A stretch of DNA of 44,520 nt from Candidatus Nomurabacteria bacterium (GTDB lineage Bacteria > Patescibacteriota > Minisyncoccia > Phycocordibacterales > SBAW01). Positions 36,041 to 44,520 of the stretch are shown piece after piece. The DNA lies in the NCBI GenBank assembly GCA_020854065.1, contig JADZGF010000010.1, positions 1 through 44,520 on the forward strand, read 5' to 3'. The position numbers and the translations under genes are program-made. Positions within the stretch are counted from its first letter, which is position 1, and each line of letters begins with the position of its first letter. Below the pieces are notes generated by a model. The model worked only from the letters and a program-made list of their open reading frames with translations. It was not told the origin of the DNA and made no database searches.

Positions 36041-36583
36041 TTAGAGGGCAGGGGTAACACTCTCAACATAGGTTGCTCCACATTCTTCCATGATTTGCGA
36101 AGCGCTATCAGAATCCTCTGTATGTGCGCTCACCAATATGTCTCCCGCTTGTACCCGATCTTCGTAGCGTAGTGCAGTCTCTTCATCCATACCCCAACTA
36201 GTGAGTGCGCCAATAAGGCCACCTGCTGCAGCACCCGTTACTGCTCCTGCGGCTCCAGTGCCAAGTGCACCTGCGCCGAGTCCTAATGCAGACACGAGCG
36301 GCCCGGCTGCCACAATGGGTCCAAGTACAGGCAGCATACCTGCAGCGACTGCAAGTCCTGCGACTCCACCCAGTGCGCCGCCTGTTATTGCACCCCGTGT
36401 AGCGCCTTCAGCTGGTCTGCTCGAGCTCACGCGGCTTGTGTCTACTTCCTGCACGCGACCGTTTGCAGAGCGGTATATATAAGAAATTTCGTCATCTCCA
36501 ATCATCGCTTCTCGATGGAGTCGATTAATTGCTTTTTCTGCGTCCTCACGGGCGCTAAATGCGCCGATTACTAGTTCTTTCAT
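36041..36583 (-). CDS. Glycine-zipper membrane/stress protein (YflT/general-stress-protein-17M-like ends, DUF1269-like core)
   Basis: The N-terminus is VIGAFSAREDAEKAINRL. The central Gly/Ala-rich helices include GGALGGVAGLAVAAG...GAGALGTGAAGAVTGAAAGGLIGAL. The C-terminus is EETALRYEDRVQAGDILVSAHTE. Confidence 0.6.
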   Translation of the reverse strand: MKELVIGAFSAREDAEKAINRLHREAMIGDDEISYIYRSANGRVQEVDTSRVSSSRPAEGATRGAITGGALGGVAGLAVAAGMLPVLGPIVAAGPLVSALGLGAGALGTGAAGAVTGAAAGGLIGALTSWGMDEETALRYEDRVQAGDILVSAHTEDSDSASQIMEECGATYVESVTPAL

Positions 36584-36663: not shown

Positions 36664-37428
36664 ATGTTCGAGATACCGCTCCTTATTGGAGCTTTTATTG
36701 CAGGAATCCTGATGTTTCTGGCGCCCTGCACGCTTCCTATCGTGCCAGCCTACCTCGCGTTCATCGCAGGCGTACCGCTTGATGCGCTTTCTCAAACTGA
36801 TGTTGCAGCACGTCGCAAAGCGCGGCGCGCAGTTATGCGCAACGCGTTAGCGTTTGTTATTGGTTTTTCTCTTATCTTTATTCTTCTCGGTGCTTCTGCA
36901 GGAGTGTTAGGGTCCTTACTTGGACCATGGCGTGGTCTTATTGCGAAAGTTGGAGGAGCTATAGTCATCTTCTTTGGCCTCACCATGCTTGGTCTTATCA
37001 ATGTATCGTTCGTCAATCGGGAACGCCACGTTCGCCTCCCTTCATTCTTGCGTCTCGGCACATTGCCAAGCTCTACGCTTATTGGCGCGCTCTTTGCAGT
37101 GGGGTGGAGTCCCTGCATCGGTCCTATCTTGGGTACCGTGCTCCTTATCGCCAGTAACCAAGCGACCGTCGTGTATGGAGCGGTATTGCTTGGTGTCTTT
37201 AGTCTCGGTTTAGCCATTCCATTTCTGTTAGTTGCTCGTGCGGTTGCAGAGGCAAGTGTACTTCTTGCGAAGCTCTCAGGCTTTGTCAGAGTGGTCTCAA
37301 TAGTGGGCGGTATCGGACTTGTGCTTGGCGGTACATTGATGCTTACAGGAAATATGAACTTGCTGGTTGCGTGGGGGTTCGAACTCTTTAATGGATTGGG
37401 GTATGAACGTTTGCTTGATTACCTCTAG
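36664..37428 (+). CDS. ccdA: Cytochrome c biogenesis protein CcdA / DsbD-family thiol-disulfide electron transporter
   Basis: FLAPCTLPIVPAYLAFIAG and GWSPCIGPILG, the two conserved Cys-Pro motifs, with six TM helices. Confidence 0.85.
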   Translation: MFEIPLLIGAFIAGILMFLAPCTLPIVPAYLAFIAGVPLDALSQTDVAARRKARRAVMRNALAFVIGFSLIFILLGASAGVLGSLLGPWRGLIAKVGGAIVIFFGLTMLGLINVSFVNRERHVRLPSFLRLGTLPSSTLIGALFAVGWSPCIGPILGTVLLIASNQATVVYGAVLLGVFSLGLAIPFLLVARAVAEASVLLAKLSGFVRVVSIVGGIGLVLGGTLMLTGNMNLLVAWGFELFNGLGYERLLDYL

Positions 37429-37434
37429 TAGGTA

Positions 37435-37473
37435 TATAGTGCCGAAAGATCACGTTCATCTATAAAAGGAGGG
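37435..37473 (+). promoter_or_regulatory. Promoter -10 (TATAGT 37435-37440) plus a strong Shine-Dalgarno (AAGGAGGG 37466-37473) for the Ubl cassette
   Basis: Read directly from the sequence. The SD ends 7 nt before ATG 37481 and is the strongest SD in the window. Confidence 0.45.
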
Positions 37474-37480
37474 AAGACAC

Positions 37481-38182
37481 ATGTCCTGGCTAAAACTGCC
37501 GGAATGGCGATTCCTTGGAAGACTAAAGGGGGCGACGGTTCCCGCGCCACTCCCTGTTGCGGCAGATCGCGATCGATGGATACGACTGCGCGAGATGTTC
37601 ACCGAAGAAAAAGGAATGGAGGAGTTTTTCGGGGGAGAATTCGACACACTGCGCAACCACGAACATATCAGGCGTATCCGCGTGAGCGAGGACTATACCG
37701 TGAGTGTCAAGACAAAAAGATTGTTTGCAACGGTCCTCGACAGGACCTGCGGCAAACATAAGAGGCTCTATATAGGAGCCTTTAGGATTACGCTTTCGAT
37801 CGAACCAGGGACTCCAGTGATGGGTCTTGCAAATCGGCCTCGTGCGAAACTTCACACCATAGAGTGCTTGAGCTCAGGCAGACATGATGGCAAGAAAACC
37901 ACTATGTATGTTGTTGGTGGTAACGAGACAGGAGGCTTCTGTTTTGGGGCTCAAGAGGGGAATTCTTTTGTCACCCAACTGGTGACGTCGGGCGAGTTCT
38001 TCACACTTATCTTGTTCGTCATGGCGAGACTTGCTCACGTCAATAAAGAGAATGAGGCAAGTGCGCTGCGCGAGTATCGGCAAGTGCTTCCGGATGGAAG
38101 TGTTGCACAGCGCAGAAAGCCGCCACCCAAGGAAAGGTTGGTCCTCTTGCAAGGTGAATGGCCTATAGGAGAAGAACCATGA
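37481..38182 (+). CDS. Uncharacterised 233-aa protein, first gene of the E1/Ubl cassette (weak UBC/E2-like pattern, unproven)
   Basis: Strong SD and an ATGA coupling to the E1-like gene. No TM helix or signal peptide. Cys residues at positions 90, 129 and 154. The segment KRLYIGAFRITLSIEPG...LHTIECL...HDG...GGFCFG loosely recalls E2 core motifs. Confidence 0.6.
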   Translation: MSWLKLPEWRFLGRLKGATVPAPLPVAADRDRWIRLREMFTEEKGMEEFFGGEFDTLRNHEHIRRIRVSEDYTVSVKTKRLFATVLDRTCGKHKRLYIGAFRITLSIEPGTPVMGLANRPRAKLHTIECLSSGRHDGKKTTMYVVGGNETGGFCFGAQEGNSFVTQLVTSGEFFTLILFVMARLAHVNKENEASALREYRQVLPDGSVAQRRKPPPKERLVLLQGEWPIGEEP

Positions 38183-38853
38183 CTCTCTATCCCGACAGAT
38201 TAGGGTATGGCGTGGTGTGTGTTGGTGCAGGAGGTATTGGCAGCCATGTGCTACCCATGCTTGCTCGTGCCGGCGTCACCCGCTTTGTCCTCTACGACGA
38301 TGACACGGTCGCTGATGTAAATCTCCAGATGCAAAACTTCAATGCTGACGAAATTGGCCAGCATAAAGTGTATGTGATGGAGAAACGCTTGCGGGCTATC
38401 AACCCCGCCGTGTGCATATCGGCACGACCGGTGCGATTTGGTGACTCGGCGGCACTTGACGGTATTGTCGTAAGCGCCGTAGACTCAATGCAGAGCCGCA
38501 CAGAGATCTTTGACGCAGTTCGTCAGAGGCGAAACACCATCGCGCTCTTTATCGATGGGAGGCTGACACGATCAGGAGATTTCATCGATCTGTATTTCAT
38601 CGACCCGAAAAATGGTTACGATATGCAGAGCTATGAATCTCTCTTGTTTGGAGATCCCGGGGGCCCTCAGCCCCCGCGGCCCGACAGTATGACGGCACAC
38701 GTGCCGCTCGTGCTCGCAGGACTCATTGGCGAAGTGCTTGCCCAATGGGGAGCCGGCAGGCGTCACCCCTGGAAGGTGACATATGATGGGTTGGCGCACC
38801 ATACCGAAAGGTATTATGCGCAAGCCTTTTCACAACTGGAGGCTGCTTCATGA
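38179..38853 (+). CDS. Minimal ThiF/MoeB/E1-like adenylyltransferase (adenylation domain only)
   Basis: Start moved to ATG 38179 (ATGA overlap; AGGAG at 38167-38171). Motifs VCVGAGGIGSHVLPMLARAGV, FVLYDDDTVADVNLQMQNF and VVSAVDSMQSR. No CxxC zinc motifs, and no Cys after residue 85. Confidence 0.8.
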   Translation: MTLYPDRLGYGVVCVGAGGIGSHVLPMLARAGVTRFVLYDDDTVADVNLQMQNFNADEIGQHKVYVMEKRLRAINPAVCISARPVRFGDSAALDGIVVSAVDSMQSRTEIFDAVRQRRNTIALFIDGRLTRSGDFIDLYFIDPKNGYDMQSYESLLFGDPGGPQPPRPDSMTAHVPLVLAGLIGEVLAQWGAGRRHPWKVTYDGLAHHTERYYAQAFSQLEAAS

Positions 38854-39056
38854 TCCGTTTTCTGAAAGCTGGCGACACACCCAAGAATGTTCTCTGCAGT
38901 TTCGACAAGACAACGGCAGGTGATGTCCTTGGACAACTCGGCGAAAATGTCGGTGGTGGCAGTGTTCTCACGATCAACGGTCGCGGCGCACAGCCCTCAG
39001 ACCCGGTGAAGCCTGGCGACACCGTGTCGGTTCAACCTCAGGCCCGCAACGGCTAA
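38850..39056 (+). CDS. Ubiquitin-like / ThiS-MoaD-like beta-grasp protein ending in ...ARNG
   Basis: 68 aa, with an ATGA overlap to the E1-like gene. TAGDVLGQLGEN...VLTINGRGAQPSDPVKPGDTVSVQPQARNG-stop matches the ThiS/MoaD pattern (..vNg....pl.dGD.v.i.p...G). Confidence 0.6.
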   Translation: MIRFLKAGDTPKNVLCSFDKTTAGDVLGQLGENVGGGSVLTINGRGAQPSDPVKPGDTVSVQPQARNG

Positions 39057-39080: not shown

Positions 39081-39116
39081 GGCGTTGTGCATCATGCACG
39101 GCGCCCTTTTCTTTTT
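39081..39116 (+). terminator. Rho-independent terminator closing the Ubl cassette
   Basis: GGCGTTGTGC-atcat-GCACGGCGCC (10-bp stem with two G-U pairs) followed by cttttcttttt. Confidence 0.6.
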
Positions 39117-39141: not shown

Positions 39142-39480
39142 ATGTTAGTTAAAGCACTCGTTCATATCATCGCTACAGCCGCCGCGCTCGTGGTTATGAC
39201 TCGTATGGTCCCCGGCATATCAGTCGAGGGCTGGTATAGCGCCCTGATCGTCGCTGTCGTCTGGGGTCTTTTGGGGGTTACGATTCGTCCTATTTTGGGG
39301 CTTTTGACGCTTCCTATAAATATCATCACGTTCGGGCTTTTCTCATTCGTACTGAATGCGCTCCTCTTTTGGTTTGTTGCCTCTATTATCCAAGGGTTCG
39401 ATGTAGCAGGGTTTGTCCCCGCGCTTATCGCTTCCGCCATCCTCGCTCTGGTCTCTTACGCGGTGGGCATGCTTTTCTAA
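39142..39480 (+). CDS. DUF360 / phage-holin-4-family small membrane protein (YvlD-like)
   Basis: 112 aa with four hydrophobic helices. Motifs ITFGLFSFVLNALLFWFVASII and GFDVAGFVPALIASAIL. Confidence 0.75.
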   Translation: MLVKALVHIIATAAALVVMTRMVPGISVEGWYSALIVAVVWGLLGVTIRPILGLLTLPINIITFGLFSFVLNALLFWFVASIIQGFDVAGFVPALIASAILALVSYAVGMLF

Positions 39481-41874: not shown

Positions 41875-42564
41875 ATGGACGAGCTTGAACTTTCTGGTCG
41901 ACGTCATCTCTCGGCAAAGCGTGCTGCGCGTGAGCATCGCTATCATAGTGATTACATTGGACAGCTTATCCGCTCGGGTAAAGTTGCAGGCCAAAAGGTT
42001 GGCCGTTCCTGGTATGTCGATGCAGAGTCTCTGAGTGCCTACCTTGCGGGGGAGTCACAGCCTGCCGCTCCGGCACAGGTGCCACCACCTGTTCCAACTC
42101 CTCCTCCGGCACCTGTTGAGGCTCCTGCCCCGCAACCAGTAGTAGAGACTCCGGTTGTCGAAGTAGAAGAAAAAGAAGAAGTTGAAGTTGTTGTGCCGCA
42201 ACCCGTGCGCATAACAAAAACTCCTGAACCAATTGTCGTCGAAGAAAAACCGCAACCTATAAAAATTTCTACACCATCACCTGTTCCACAACCAACAGGT
42301 TTACGATTTGTTCCTGACGATGAACCTATTGTGCGTGCGGTGCATACTATGCCAACACCGCAGACAGCGTACGACGATAGTGACGATGAAGGAGACGTTG
42401 TCATCACTCCTTCAGTGAAGTCATCTCGCATGCAACCCGTTATGCTCGCGACACTTGCAGTGTGTGCATTCGCTCTCACGCTTGCATCATCATATTTTTT
42501 TGTACATCGCACTATAGTTGCAGGCAGCAACACAAGTGCAGCGGTGCAGTTAAGCGGTAAGTAG
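41875..42564 (+). CDS. Membrane-tethered helix-turn-helix protein: excisionase/MerR-like HTH, Pro-rich linker and C-terminal TM
   Basis: LSAKRAAREHRYHSDYIGQLIRSGKVAGQKVGRSWYVDAESLSAYL is an HTH_17-like pattern. The Pro/Val/Glu linker reads PAAPAQVPPPVPTPPPAPVEAPAPQP. The TM helix is VMLATLAVCAFALTLASSYFFV. Confidence 0.6.
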   Translation: MDELELSGRRHLSAKRAAREHRYHSDYIGQLIRSGKVAGQKVGRSWYVDAESLSAYLAGESQPAAPAQVPPPVPTPPPAPVEAPAPQPVVETPVVEVEEKEEVEVVVPQPVRITKTPEPIVVEEKPQPIKISTPSPVPQPTGLRFVPDDEPIVRAVHTMPTPQTAYDDSDDEGDVVITPSVKSSRMQPVMLATLAVCAFALTLASSYFFVHRTIVAGSNTSAAVQLSGK

Positions 42565-43043: not shown

Positions 43044-44520
43044 ATGACCTCGGATAACAAATCATATATAGCTACGAACGAGGTAATCCTTTCTGCAAAG
43101 GAGGCTGCGAATCTTTTGCAGTGCACTCCAGACTACATCACCAAACTTGCCAGAGAAGGCAAGCTCGACGGTACGCAAAACGGTAAGGGTTGGCAGGTGA
43201 CTCATTCGTCACTCAAGCGTTATGAGGCAACGCGTGATAACCAGAAAGCCGAGCGAGCGAAAGACCTTGCAGAGGAACGTCGCCGTGAGCTTGTTGCGTC
43301 AACTCCAACTTCGCTCAAGCACGTATACGTTGCGCTCATGCTCTCACTTGTGTTTGGTGCTACAACATTTTCTCTTGCGTCCGTTATCAAACACGATGTT
43401 GCCGGAATACAGGCAGCTTCTCTTGGTCGTGTTGAATCACCTTTCTTTGCTTCATTTGATCTTGGAGGTGTAGTTGGTTCTGTACGCGATGCAGTTGCTC
43501 GCTTGTTTGCGCCATCAACAAATCTTTCACCAGTTGCGAATCAAAATATCTCGACACCAAACACAGCAACCACAACGATAGTAAACAATTACACGACCGC
43601 TCAGGTTGTTGAACGAATTGTTGAGCGTGTTGCACCAGCAGACTCAGCAACACTCACGGTTAACTTTAGTGACTGGGCTACTGCTTTTGAGACTCGCTTT
43701 GAACTGCAGGTCAACCGCATTTTTGATGTTATTGGTGACCTTGAAACTGGTGGGGGCGGAATTAGCACCATTACCGATGCCGACGTCCCGGACACTATAA
43801 CCGCAAGTAACTATCTACCACTCGCAGGAGGCACCCTGACCGGTGATCTCTTTGGTACCACTGCAACCTTTGACTCGATCTTGGTGACGGATGCTACTTC
43901 GACCAATGCAACGACGACTAATTTCTGGTTGCTTGGTGCGGCAGAAGGGTGTGCGCAGTTTGATACCAACGGCAAATTAACATCGACTGGCACGAACTGT
44001 GGCAGCGGTGGCGGCGGCGCTGATGGTAACTGGGTGTACTTCAATGGTTCTGGTATTCGTCTGGCAACAACCTCGGTTCAGGTAGTCATTGGTGCAACTG
44101 CTACATCGAGTGATTCAAAAGTACAAATTGTCGGTGGTCTTACGCTCGACAACTCCACAACAACCAGCGCCACAACAACCACCTTTGGAATCACTGCACT
44201 TCAAAACGCACTTCTTGGTACGAACGCAGAAGGGTCTGTCATTGCAACTACTTCACTCTCTATCAGTCAGTACCTAACGGGCACTCTTCCTGTTGCAAAC
44301 GGCGGTACCGGCGCATCCTCTCTCACATCTGGCCAGCTCCTCTATGGAGCAGGAACCGGTGCAGTACAGAGTGTTGCAACCGGCACCGTCTCCTCCGGCG
44401 CAGGTATCTCAGTGACTGCAGGCCAGTACATCATCGGCTCAGGGCTTACCATCACCAACACCGGCGTTACCTCTCTTGCAGGCACGGCAAACCAAATCAC
44501 TGCAAGTGCTGCAACTGGTG
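43044..44520 (+). CDS. Large surface protein, 3-prime partial: N-terminal HTH, TM helix and an extracellular Thr/Gly-rich region with phage-tail-fibre-like motifs
   Basis: Not in the ORF track because it runs off the window. Hand translation from ATG 43044 gives 492 codons with no stop. The HTH is LSAKEAANLLQCTPDYITKLAREGKLDGTQNGKGWQV. The TM helix is VYVALMLSLVFGATTFSLASVI. Other motifs are YLPLAGGTLTGDL (43812-43850) and LPVANGGTGASSL (44286-44324). Confidence 0.65.
   Translation, partial: MTSDNKSYIATNEVILSAKEAANLLQCTPDYITKLAREGKLDGTQNGKGWQVTHSSLKRYEATRDNQKAERAKDLAEERRRELVASTPTSLKHVYVALMLSLVFGATTFSLASVIKHDVAGIQAASLGRVESPFFASFDLGGVVGSVRDAVARLFAPSTNLSPVANQNISTPNTATTTIVNNYTTAQVVERIVERVAPADSATLTVNFSDWATAFETRFELQVNRIFDVIGDLETGGGGISTITDADVPDTITASNYLPLAGGTLTGDLFGTTATFDSILVTDATSTNATTTNFWLLGAAEGCAQFDTNGKLTSTGTNCGSGGGGADGNWVYFNGSGIRLATTSVQVVIGATATSSDSKVQIVGGLTLDNSTTTSATTTTFGITALQNALLGTNAEGSVIATTSLSISQYLTGTLPVANGGTGASSLTSGQLLYGAGTGAVQSVATGTVSSGAGISVTAGQYIIGSGLTITNTGVTSLAGTANQITASAATG

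Follow-up and report, generated by a model that had tools for sequence, protein, structure and literature searches.

Protein conjugation by bacterial ubiquitination-like pathways has been shown only recently, and each of the pathways (Cap2 in cyclic-oligonucleotide-based antiphage signaling systems [CBASS], Bil, and Bub) turned out to use unexpected chemistry. According to PMC11601596, the Bub E1 proteins have no cysteine in the crossover loop, an invariant tyrosine forming an oxyester with the ubiquitin-like protein (Ubl), and target recognition by the E2 itself has been proposed for the Bil systems. Prok-E2_D (PF14460) is PRTRC protein B, found in operon type 6d of Iyer, Burroughs & Aravind 2006, and that paper describes an absolutely conserved histidine C-terminal to its cysteine (PMC1779556). 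Here, we compare with these systems a three-gene locus in a 44,520-nucleotide stretch of DNA (the window) from Candidatus Nomurabacteria bacterium (assembly GCA_020854065.1, contig JADZGF010000010.1), consisting of a gene designated X (37481..38182) followed by genes for an E1-like protein and a Ubl. We put at roughly 55% the probability that X represents a new, very divergent E2-like family, which would use its cysteine 154 (C154) in a minimal Ubl conjugation cassette.

An E2-like role appears the most likely one for X because its family has an invariant cysteine and the gene lies beside those of an E1-type enzyme and a Ubl. The protein had been described as an orphan in the initial annotation, which proved wrong: a word-indexed search found four close relatives with 52–90% identity, and an exhaustive search among 1.84 billion cluster representatives gave 36 at E<=1e-3, 17 of these at E<=1e-10. 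Alignment A2 (35 sequences) combines 31 of the 36 representatives with the close relatives of X; excluded were P0026 and P0039 (repeat proteins of 2052 and 5546 amino acids, whose matches are probably compositional), P0028 (308 amino acids, with an N-terminal extension), and the fragments P0030 and P0033. The features of the gene are as follows.

37481..38182, forward strand: open reading frame (ORF) of X, 233 amino acids, a soluble protein of an unclassified family and proposed E2-like Ubl acceptor or transferase; first gene of the cassette.
37466..37473, forward strand: Shine-Dalgarno-like sequence AAGGAGGG, 7 nucleotides upstream of the ATG of X, read directly from the sequence.
37769..37783, forward strand: Y97-I-G99-A-F101, which fits the motif [YF]-x-G-x-[YF] conserved in A2 and opens a predicted strand.
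37874..37891, forward strand: S132-G-R-H-D-G137, the family signature SGRxDG, conserved in A2.
37907..37909, forward strand: codon of Y143, the aligned counterpart of the final residue of HPH, APH, or PPN in larger relatives (the "HPN" position of E2 proteins).
37940..37942, forward strand: codon of C154 within GGFCFG, the sole invariant nucleophile and proposed thioester site.
38036..38044, forward strand: H186-V-N188, with which the long helix that follows the cysteine ends, the histidine kept in 25/35 and the asparagine in 33/35 sequences of A2.

C154 is retained in 35/35 sequences of A2 and stays invariant after distant domains are added, both in alignment A5 (17 sequences, 4 of them added) and in A9 (9 sequences). 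X has exactly three cysteines, at positions 90, 129, and 154, two of which had been put forward as catalytic. The ORF itself and the codons of both candidates (37865–37867 for C129) are where they had been placed; C154 holds as a candidate, whereas C129, kept in 29/35 sequences, is unsupported as a catalytic residue. C90 is kept in 5/35, and the preceding histidine, H135, kept in 17/35, is likewise unsupported as a catalytic residue. Apart from C154, only G133 is invariant, with S132, D136, Y143 (34/35, the single exception being a histidine), F153, F155, G156, E172, and N188 nearly so. This gives the family signature SGRxDG ... Y ... GGFCFG ... GE ... L(D/E)SLxH(I/V)N, in the first element of which x is H135 and the other residues are kept in 33 (S), 35 (G), 30 (R), 32 (D), and 26 (G) of the 35 sequences.

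The stretch KRLYIGAFRITLSIEPG, likened earlier to an E2 β-hairpin, does span residues 94–110, and its [YF]-x-G-x-[YF] motif is conserved among the 35 members: Y or F occurs at position 97 in 28 and at 101 in 32, and G99 in 28, with alanine in the other 7. RPRAKLHTIECL begins at residue 119, HDG at 135, GGFCFG at 151, and FFTLILFVMARLAHV at 173, all as claimed; the spacer between HDG and GGFCFG, given as 15 residues, in fact counts 13. The absence of a transmembrane helix is likewise confirmed, since the longest uncharged run is only 10 residues. A crude propensity profile of the alignment shows a helix at 31–58, then four segments of strand, next the loop that contains Y143 and C154, and finally helices at 164–184 and 193–199; the position of C154 between predicted strands and a long helix comes solely from this profile. 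The order of these elements is compatible with the UBC topology, yet is no test of it.

The family is new to the resources searched. X had no match in Pfam, PADLOC, NCBIfam, or PHROGs (the NCBIfam row F430_CfbC, at E 0.19, is noise), and searches of the PDB by sequence or profile gave chance-level rows only. A tblastn search of X against 50,697 phage records found no match, scans of viral contigs and genome contigs revealed no X-related loci, and longer fused forms of X were not found, the latter on evidence that we rate as weak. Literature searches on Ubl systems of Patescibacteria (candidate phyla radiation, CPR) and on PRTRC and ubiquitin yielded no description of the X family, supplementary operon catalogues (e.g., Table S1 of PMC11601596) being outside their scope.

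Weaker matches of the X-family hidden Markov model (HMM) in 301 genomes of the order, together with a follow-up alignment search, revealed nine larger proteins of 261–649 codons (10/301 genomes), whose C-terminal ~150 residues are homologous to X. The comparison of the X family with the domain of these larger relatives by hhalign gave 98.3% (E 2.3e-14); in reciprocal searches of a small local database the X HMM found 8/9 larger proteins and their HMM found 3/5 X proteins, and in the search of the order's genomes their HMM matched X of genome G447 at 4.6e-6 (per genome). All of this indicates that the C-terminal domains are true homologues of X. In these domains, the cysteine and the glycine that follows it are invariant, as is the glycine of [YF]-x-G-x-[YF] (9/9). 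The column of Y143 of X holds HPH, APH, or PPN, and C-[FL]-G follows 7–8 residues later, the segments from this motif to the cysteine being HPHINKEGTPCFGN, HPHIFGQDGSDVCLGN, PPNINRQGLVSCFGD, and HPHLSAPNGPCFGN. The canonical UBC signature consists of HPN, seven residues, and the cysteine, with a glycine three residues ahead of the cysteine; the spacing from HPH or PPN to the cysteine in the larger relatives is the classical one of UBC/E2 proteins.

The larger relatives share the genomic company of X. An E1 gene adjoins them in 6/9 loci. Of the three loci without one, two are truncated by a contig end at the expected position of the E1, and the third, L038, has none within 10 kb. JAMM-motif peptidases with an exact H-x-H-x7-S-x-x-D occur in two of these loci. 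One, L017 (G503:C2, 3220–6660), shows the order of a Ubl-like ORF ending in ...REIRGN (glycine plus one residue), a JAB gene, an E1 gene, and an X-like gene, whose product of 481 amino acids has the C-terminal domain homologous to X and ~290 initial residues that match no family; nor did the long N-terminal regions of the other larger relatives match any. A tailed Ubl (glycine plus one residue) encoded with a JAB protein, against a Ubl that ends on its glycine and is encoded without one in the window, makes for a coherent logic.

In the window itself, X is followed by these features.

38179..38853, forward strand: E1-like ThiF-family adenylyltransferase, 224 amino acids; its start codon shares bases with the X stop codon (ATGA, 38179–38182), and an alternative ATG is present at 38158.
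38850..39056, forward strand: Ubl, a β-grasp ubiquitin-like protein of 68 amino acids; its ATG overlaps the stop codon of the E1, and it ends in ...ARNG with the stop right after Gly68.
39081..39115, forward strand: terminator-like hairpin of 11 pairs (7 G-C) followed by a T-run, CTTTTCTTTT, at the end of the operon.

Because the start and stop codons overlap and a single terminator follows the Ubl, X is taken to open a unit of three genes, X–E1–Ubl. The E1 matches Pfam ThiF (PF00899) at 8.5e-22 (77.9 bits, cut-off 28.1), the PADLOC E1-E2 (Cap2) models down to 4.9e-19, and, among many sub-threshold rows, NCBIfam PRTRC_ThiF at 2.6e-12. In the PDB, its profile ranks UBA5 (8e-18), Uba1, UBA6, and UBA7 above ThiF (4.6e-14), MoeB (4.7e-11), and Uba4 (2.8e-9), and reaches the Cap2 chains at 6e-10. 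It carries the Rossmann GxGxxG and the adenylation-site aspartate and lysine, with G16, G18, G21, D40, D42, N48, K63, D102, R107, D126, and R128 invariant in seven sequences; what would usually be the arginine of an N-L-x-R-Q motif is a methionine here (NLQMQ). Across the five orthologues and two distant E1s no cysteine is conserved, and CxxC pairs are absent. Tyr152 (38632–38634) is invariant in 7/7 and lies ~50 residues after the Mg-binding aspartate, a spacing that would place it in the crossover loop. For the Ubl, Pfam gave the sub-threshold matches Ub-Mut7C (0.001) and ThiS (0.0037), and all five orthologues end directly before the stop in NG, NG, LG, NG, and NG, that is, in a single glycine and not in Gly-Gly.

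Two further observations concern the E1. Contigs from RNA libraries (two libraries of one study) cover 38607–38868 and 38737–38986 at 100% identity, spanning the E1/Ubl junction; as DNA carry-over is possible, they are not counted as evidence of transcription, nor are the uncovered parts counted as silence. In crAss-like phages (L008, MT774387.1, 912–4813; L007, PQ006092.1) an E1-like protein 25–27% identical over ~85% of the length adjoins a protein annotated with a metalloprotease domain and uncharacterized proteins of 224–426 amino acids. This lead was dropped, the three proteins neighboring the phage E1 being unrelated to X (hhalign 0.1–1.1%).

X relatives are carried by five metagenome loci, the four with enough flanking sequence showing X, a ThiF-family gene, and an ORF of ~70 amino acids in this order (L002, a contig of 1258 bases, was left out of the neighbor comparison). 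The X–E1–Ubl trio is present in 5/5 X loci with enough flank, and counting X-like domains as well, an E1-like gene is adjacent in 11/14 loci. The order secA ... X–E1–Ubl ... PF04020 membrane protein ... obg/gatB is common to the window, L004, L005, and partly L003. Identity to the window across these loci is 57–74% for the housekeeping neighbors, 41–56% for the Ubl, 40–53% for the E1, and only 32–40% for X, which makes X the fastest-evolving gene of the locus. The distribution is patchy: among 401 genomes sampled from the phylum the X-family HMM finds just that of the window, and it finds 6/301 genomes of the order and 0/4 other genomes of the genus. The window's genome (620 kb, 17 contigs, 95% complete) has the cassette E1 as its sole ThiF-family match and encodes one class-V aminotransferase of the cysteine desulfurase type outside the cassette. 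Its size and gene content suggest an ultra-small bacterium of the CPR/Patescibacteria type.

Two neighbors recur at these loci. Immediately downstream of the cassette, the window, L003, and L004 encode a PF04020 protein with four transmembrane segments ("phage holin 4_2" family; 39142–39480), which in L005 is found one gene further on. On the upstream side, the window and L004 share a DsbD_TM/CcdA-like membrane protein (36664–37428). In the window, an ORF of 180 amino acids (36041–36583, reverse strand) separates secA from the DsbD-like gene and has a long Gly/Ala-rich, glycine-zipper-like middle (Pfam Gly-zipper_Omp, a weak match at E 0.0022), and L004 has a NUDIX gene at this position. The ORFs 41875–42564 and 43044–44519 share a similar N-terminal segment (SAKRAARE.../...LAREGKLDG..GKGW.V..SL, seen in translation only), which is followed by a hydrophobic segment and then by long Pro-rich or Thr/Gly-rich low-complexity regions.

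We propose that the E1-like protein would activate the Ubl by ATP-dependent adenylation of its C-terminal Gly68. As no cysteine is conserved in the E1, C154 of X would accept the activated Ubl as a thioester, either directly or via Tyr152 of the E1, and X would then conjugate it to a target amino group, probably recognizing the target on its own. A Ubl made without a tail would need no JAB peptidase. The operon, the family with its invariant cysteine, the homology to the HPH-type domains, and the linkage to E1, Ubl, and JAB genes are direct observations, whereas the UBC-like fold, the thioester, the transfer, and the target are what we infer for X. A bolder version, which we think quite unlikely, would see in the cassette a hybrid relay within a two-enzyme CPR system lacking JAB: an oxyester on Tyr152 of the E1, like that of the Bub E1 proteins, followed by a thioester on C154, with X doubling as the target-recognition module, and with the larger HPH-type relatives (with JAB and a tailed Ubl, and judging by structural look-alikes in the ESM Atlas also in phages) as the ancestral form.

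Several results weigh against an E2-like X. Pfam gave no match at E<=1 for any of the 35 members of the family; four of the larger proteins had no match in Pfam, nor did the nine X-like domains at E<=10. PF14460 and PF00179 (UQ_con) gave nothing at E<=10 in the window's genome, and PF14460 nothing in five related genomes. Profile searches of the PDB with X or its relatives found no E2, and no statistically sound match of either was obtained to UBC, RWD, or Prok-E2 models. Comparison by hhalign with a Prok-E2_D alignment (120 PRTRC B homologues, 65 of which were kept at <80% identity) gave 0.7% for X (P=0.079) and 3.4% for the larger relatives (P=0.013); 6/100 column-shuffled templates reached the real score for X and 1/100 for the relatives, and a reversed template outscored the real one for X. 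The model of X in the ESM Atlas (predicted template modeling score [pTM] 0.68) has a Prok-E2_D cluster at template modeling (TM) scores of 0.36/0.38 over 138 residues, under the usual bar of 0.5. In UBC/E2 proteins the HPN motif lies ~10 residues ahead of the cysteine; X has T-M-Y143 at this position, and H135 is not conserved. JAB had no match at E<=1 in the window's genome, and no target, E3, or deconjugating enzyme is known for the cassette.

As a positive control, PF14460 detects PRTRC B at 2.3e-57, whereas X and its relatives give no match to this model, for which the threshold is 25 bits. Without a match to either model, X cannot be filed under UQ_con or Prok-E2_D; our claim is that it would work like an E2, not that it belongs to a named E2 family. 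The earlier idea of a divergent E2 is supported in part: it stands on the linkage to E1 and Ubl, on the invariant C154, and on the homologues with HPH or PPN, and falls short where a sound UBC, RWD, or Prok-E2 match would be expected. In the hhalign comparisons, the register was constant, Y143 and C154 falling on PPYFN...G-K-I-C-I-G of Prok-E2_D and on NHQ..C of the E2 part of Cap2; only with permissive settings does SLxHIN (H186–N188) fall on SAFTHPN/THPN of Prok-E2_D. Single-sequence comparisons of X with PRTRC B, PRTRC A, and the E2 part of Cap2 (0.06–0.43%) were dropped. Prok-E2_D is also the sole E1-associated named family in the structural list of the Atlas for X. The best structural neighbors there are unnamed, mostly viral (Uroviricota) proteins of 392–477 amino acids, with TM scores of 0.50–0.55 by query, and match the larger relatives in size; relatives of X were, despite these viral neighbors, not found in phage records or in IMG/VR. 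The nearest clusters in feature space (scores 0.93, 0.90, and 0.89) are likewise unnamed and mostly viral, and a feature-space search for named clusters produced no usable match.

The lack of significant similarity of X to any E2 family also favors a different reading, in which X would be a substrate or effector of unrelated fold, modified or regulated by the Ubl like the CD-NTase of type II CBASS, with C154 being structural or serving other chemistry. The rapid divergence of X relative to the E1 and the housekeeping genes would fit such a role, as would the long N-terminal regions of the larger relatives that match no family. However, an invariant cysteine in a G-x-C-[FL]-G loop after HPH or PPN, kept across very distant relatives, is not expected of a substrate, and if a thioester is used, an E1 without a conserved cysteine needs a partner that supplies the nucleophile. 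We consider this reading unlikely.

Alternatively, the locus could be a sulfur-carrier cassette of the ThiS/MoaD/TtuB/CysO type, in which the Ubl would form a thiocarboxylate and C154 of X would act in a persulfide relay or in a sulfur-consuming enzyme. The best named matches of the E1 and the Ubl are indeed ThiF and ThiS models, the E1-like gene is the only one in a 620-kb genome that has a cysteine desulfurase-type gene elsewhere, and four loci share its location amid housekeeping genes. Known sulfur carriers, however, end in Gly-Gly and have a partner sulfur-using enzyme: the five Ubls here end in xG, and X has no match to rhodanese, PP-loop, or other sulfur-enzyme families. Further, the ThiF and ThiS scores are far under the curated NCBIfam cut-offs, the E1 profile favors conjugating E1s in the PDB, and a cassette not found in 4/4 other genomes of the genus and 295/301 of the order would be odd for a core cofactor or tRNA pathway, so that this reading seems improbable to us. 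A role of X as a cysteine peptidase acting on the Ubl or as its deconjugating enzyme, with a papain-like triad of C154, H186, and N188, is very improbable: the Cys...His-x-Asn order is present (N188 in 33/35, H186 in 25/35) and the cassette has no JAB peptidase, but 10/35 members have Y, K, W, N, or S in place of H186, the H-x-N motif is absent from the larger homologues, some with a JAB neighbor of their own, the Ubl needs no processing, and X matches no peptidase family.

The family of X is undetected by every curated library tried and occurs in bacteria with genomes of ~600 kb, where it belongs to the smallest such cassette, made up of an E1 that lacks a conserved cysteine, a Ubl without a tail, and one cysteine protein. 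If X is an E2, it would add to the E2 superfamily and provide a system of three proteins that is easy to reconstitute; one would then ask which proteins an ultra-small bacterium, probably dependent on a host, marks in this way: its own, those of its host, or those of phages. The hybrid oxyester–thioester relay, if true, would amount to a new branch of the E2 superfamily and to chromosomal protein tagging in genomes of ~600 kb. If X is not an E2, it would be a new kind of partner for E1/Ubl pairs.

Compared with the canonical UBC proteins (UQ_con, PF00179), X shows the same order of N-terminal helix, [YF]-x-G-x-[YF] strand, cysteine loop, and long helix, and the larger relatives, with H-P-H-I-N-x-x-G-x-x-C, have the HPN-x7-C spacing. 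Unlike UBC proteins, X has no UQ_con match at any threshold tried, a tyrosine in place of HPN, predicted strands three and four separated by a variable insertion, and the extra signature SGRxDG.

X and Prok-E2_D are both stand-alone proteins of ~200–240 amino acids with a single conserved cysteine in a G-x-(I/F)-C-(I/F)-G loop, and the genes of both adjoin those of a small E1 of the ThiF type and a small Ubl; the match of the window's E1 to the PRTRC_ThiF model (2.6e-12) adds to this. Like Prok-E2_D as described, X lacks the classical E2 histidine before the cysteine and has a histidine on the helix downstream (PMC1779556). In X this is H186, at +32 from the cysteine, kept in only 25/35 members and absent from the larger relatives, and in PRTRC B it lies, by our own count, at +29. 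X and its relatives are, in contrast to Prok-E2_D, undetected by PF14460, with hhalign reaching P=0.013–0.08 only. The PRTRC operons also differ in being plasmid-borne and in adding JAB, an alpha-helical protein, ParB, and Prok_Ub: that of a Cupriavidus plasmid encodes ParB, E, C (Prok_Ub), F (alpha-hel2), B (PF14460), A (JAB), and ThiF, whereas the cassette of the window has three genes, none of them for JAB, an alpha-helical protein, or Prok_Ub, and a syntenic chromosomal position.

The Cap2, Bil, and Bub systems differ from the cassette in several respects: X is not fused to the E1 and has no PADLOC model, the cassette lacks JAB, a DUF6527 protease, a CD-NTase, and an effector gene, and its host has an ultra-small genome in which the locus is syntenic among housekeeping genes and not part of a defence island. 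As a separate observation, the Klebsiella plasmid locus L016 (CP093316.1, 1853–4822) is annotated with one gene for a CBASS-type E2 part (weak UQ_con match) and another for a ThiF part; an IS5-family transposase lies between the two, and patatin-like and MPN/JAB genes adjoin them. X retains a cysteine where, according to PMC11601596, the Bub E2 proteins use a serine. There is also common ground: like Cap2 (type II CBASS), BilB (Bil), and BubB/BubBD (Bub, 6E), the cassette combines an E1-type adenylation domain, a candidate E2-type partner, and a donor with a C-terminal glycine, and has no E3; like the Bub E1 proteins, its E1 has no conserved cysteine and one invariant tyrosine (Y152, 7/7); and, as proposed for the Bil E2 proteins, X would recognize the target itself (PMC11601596).

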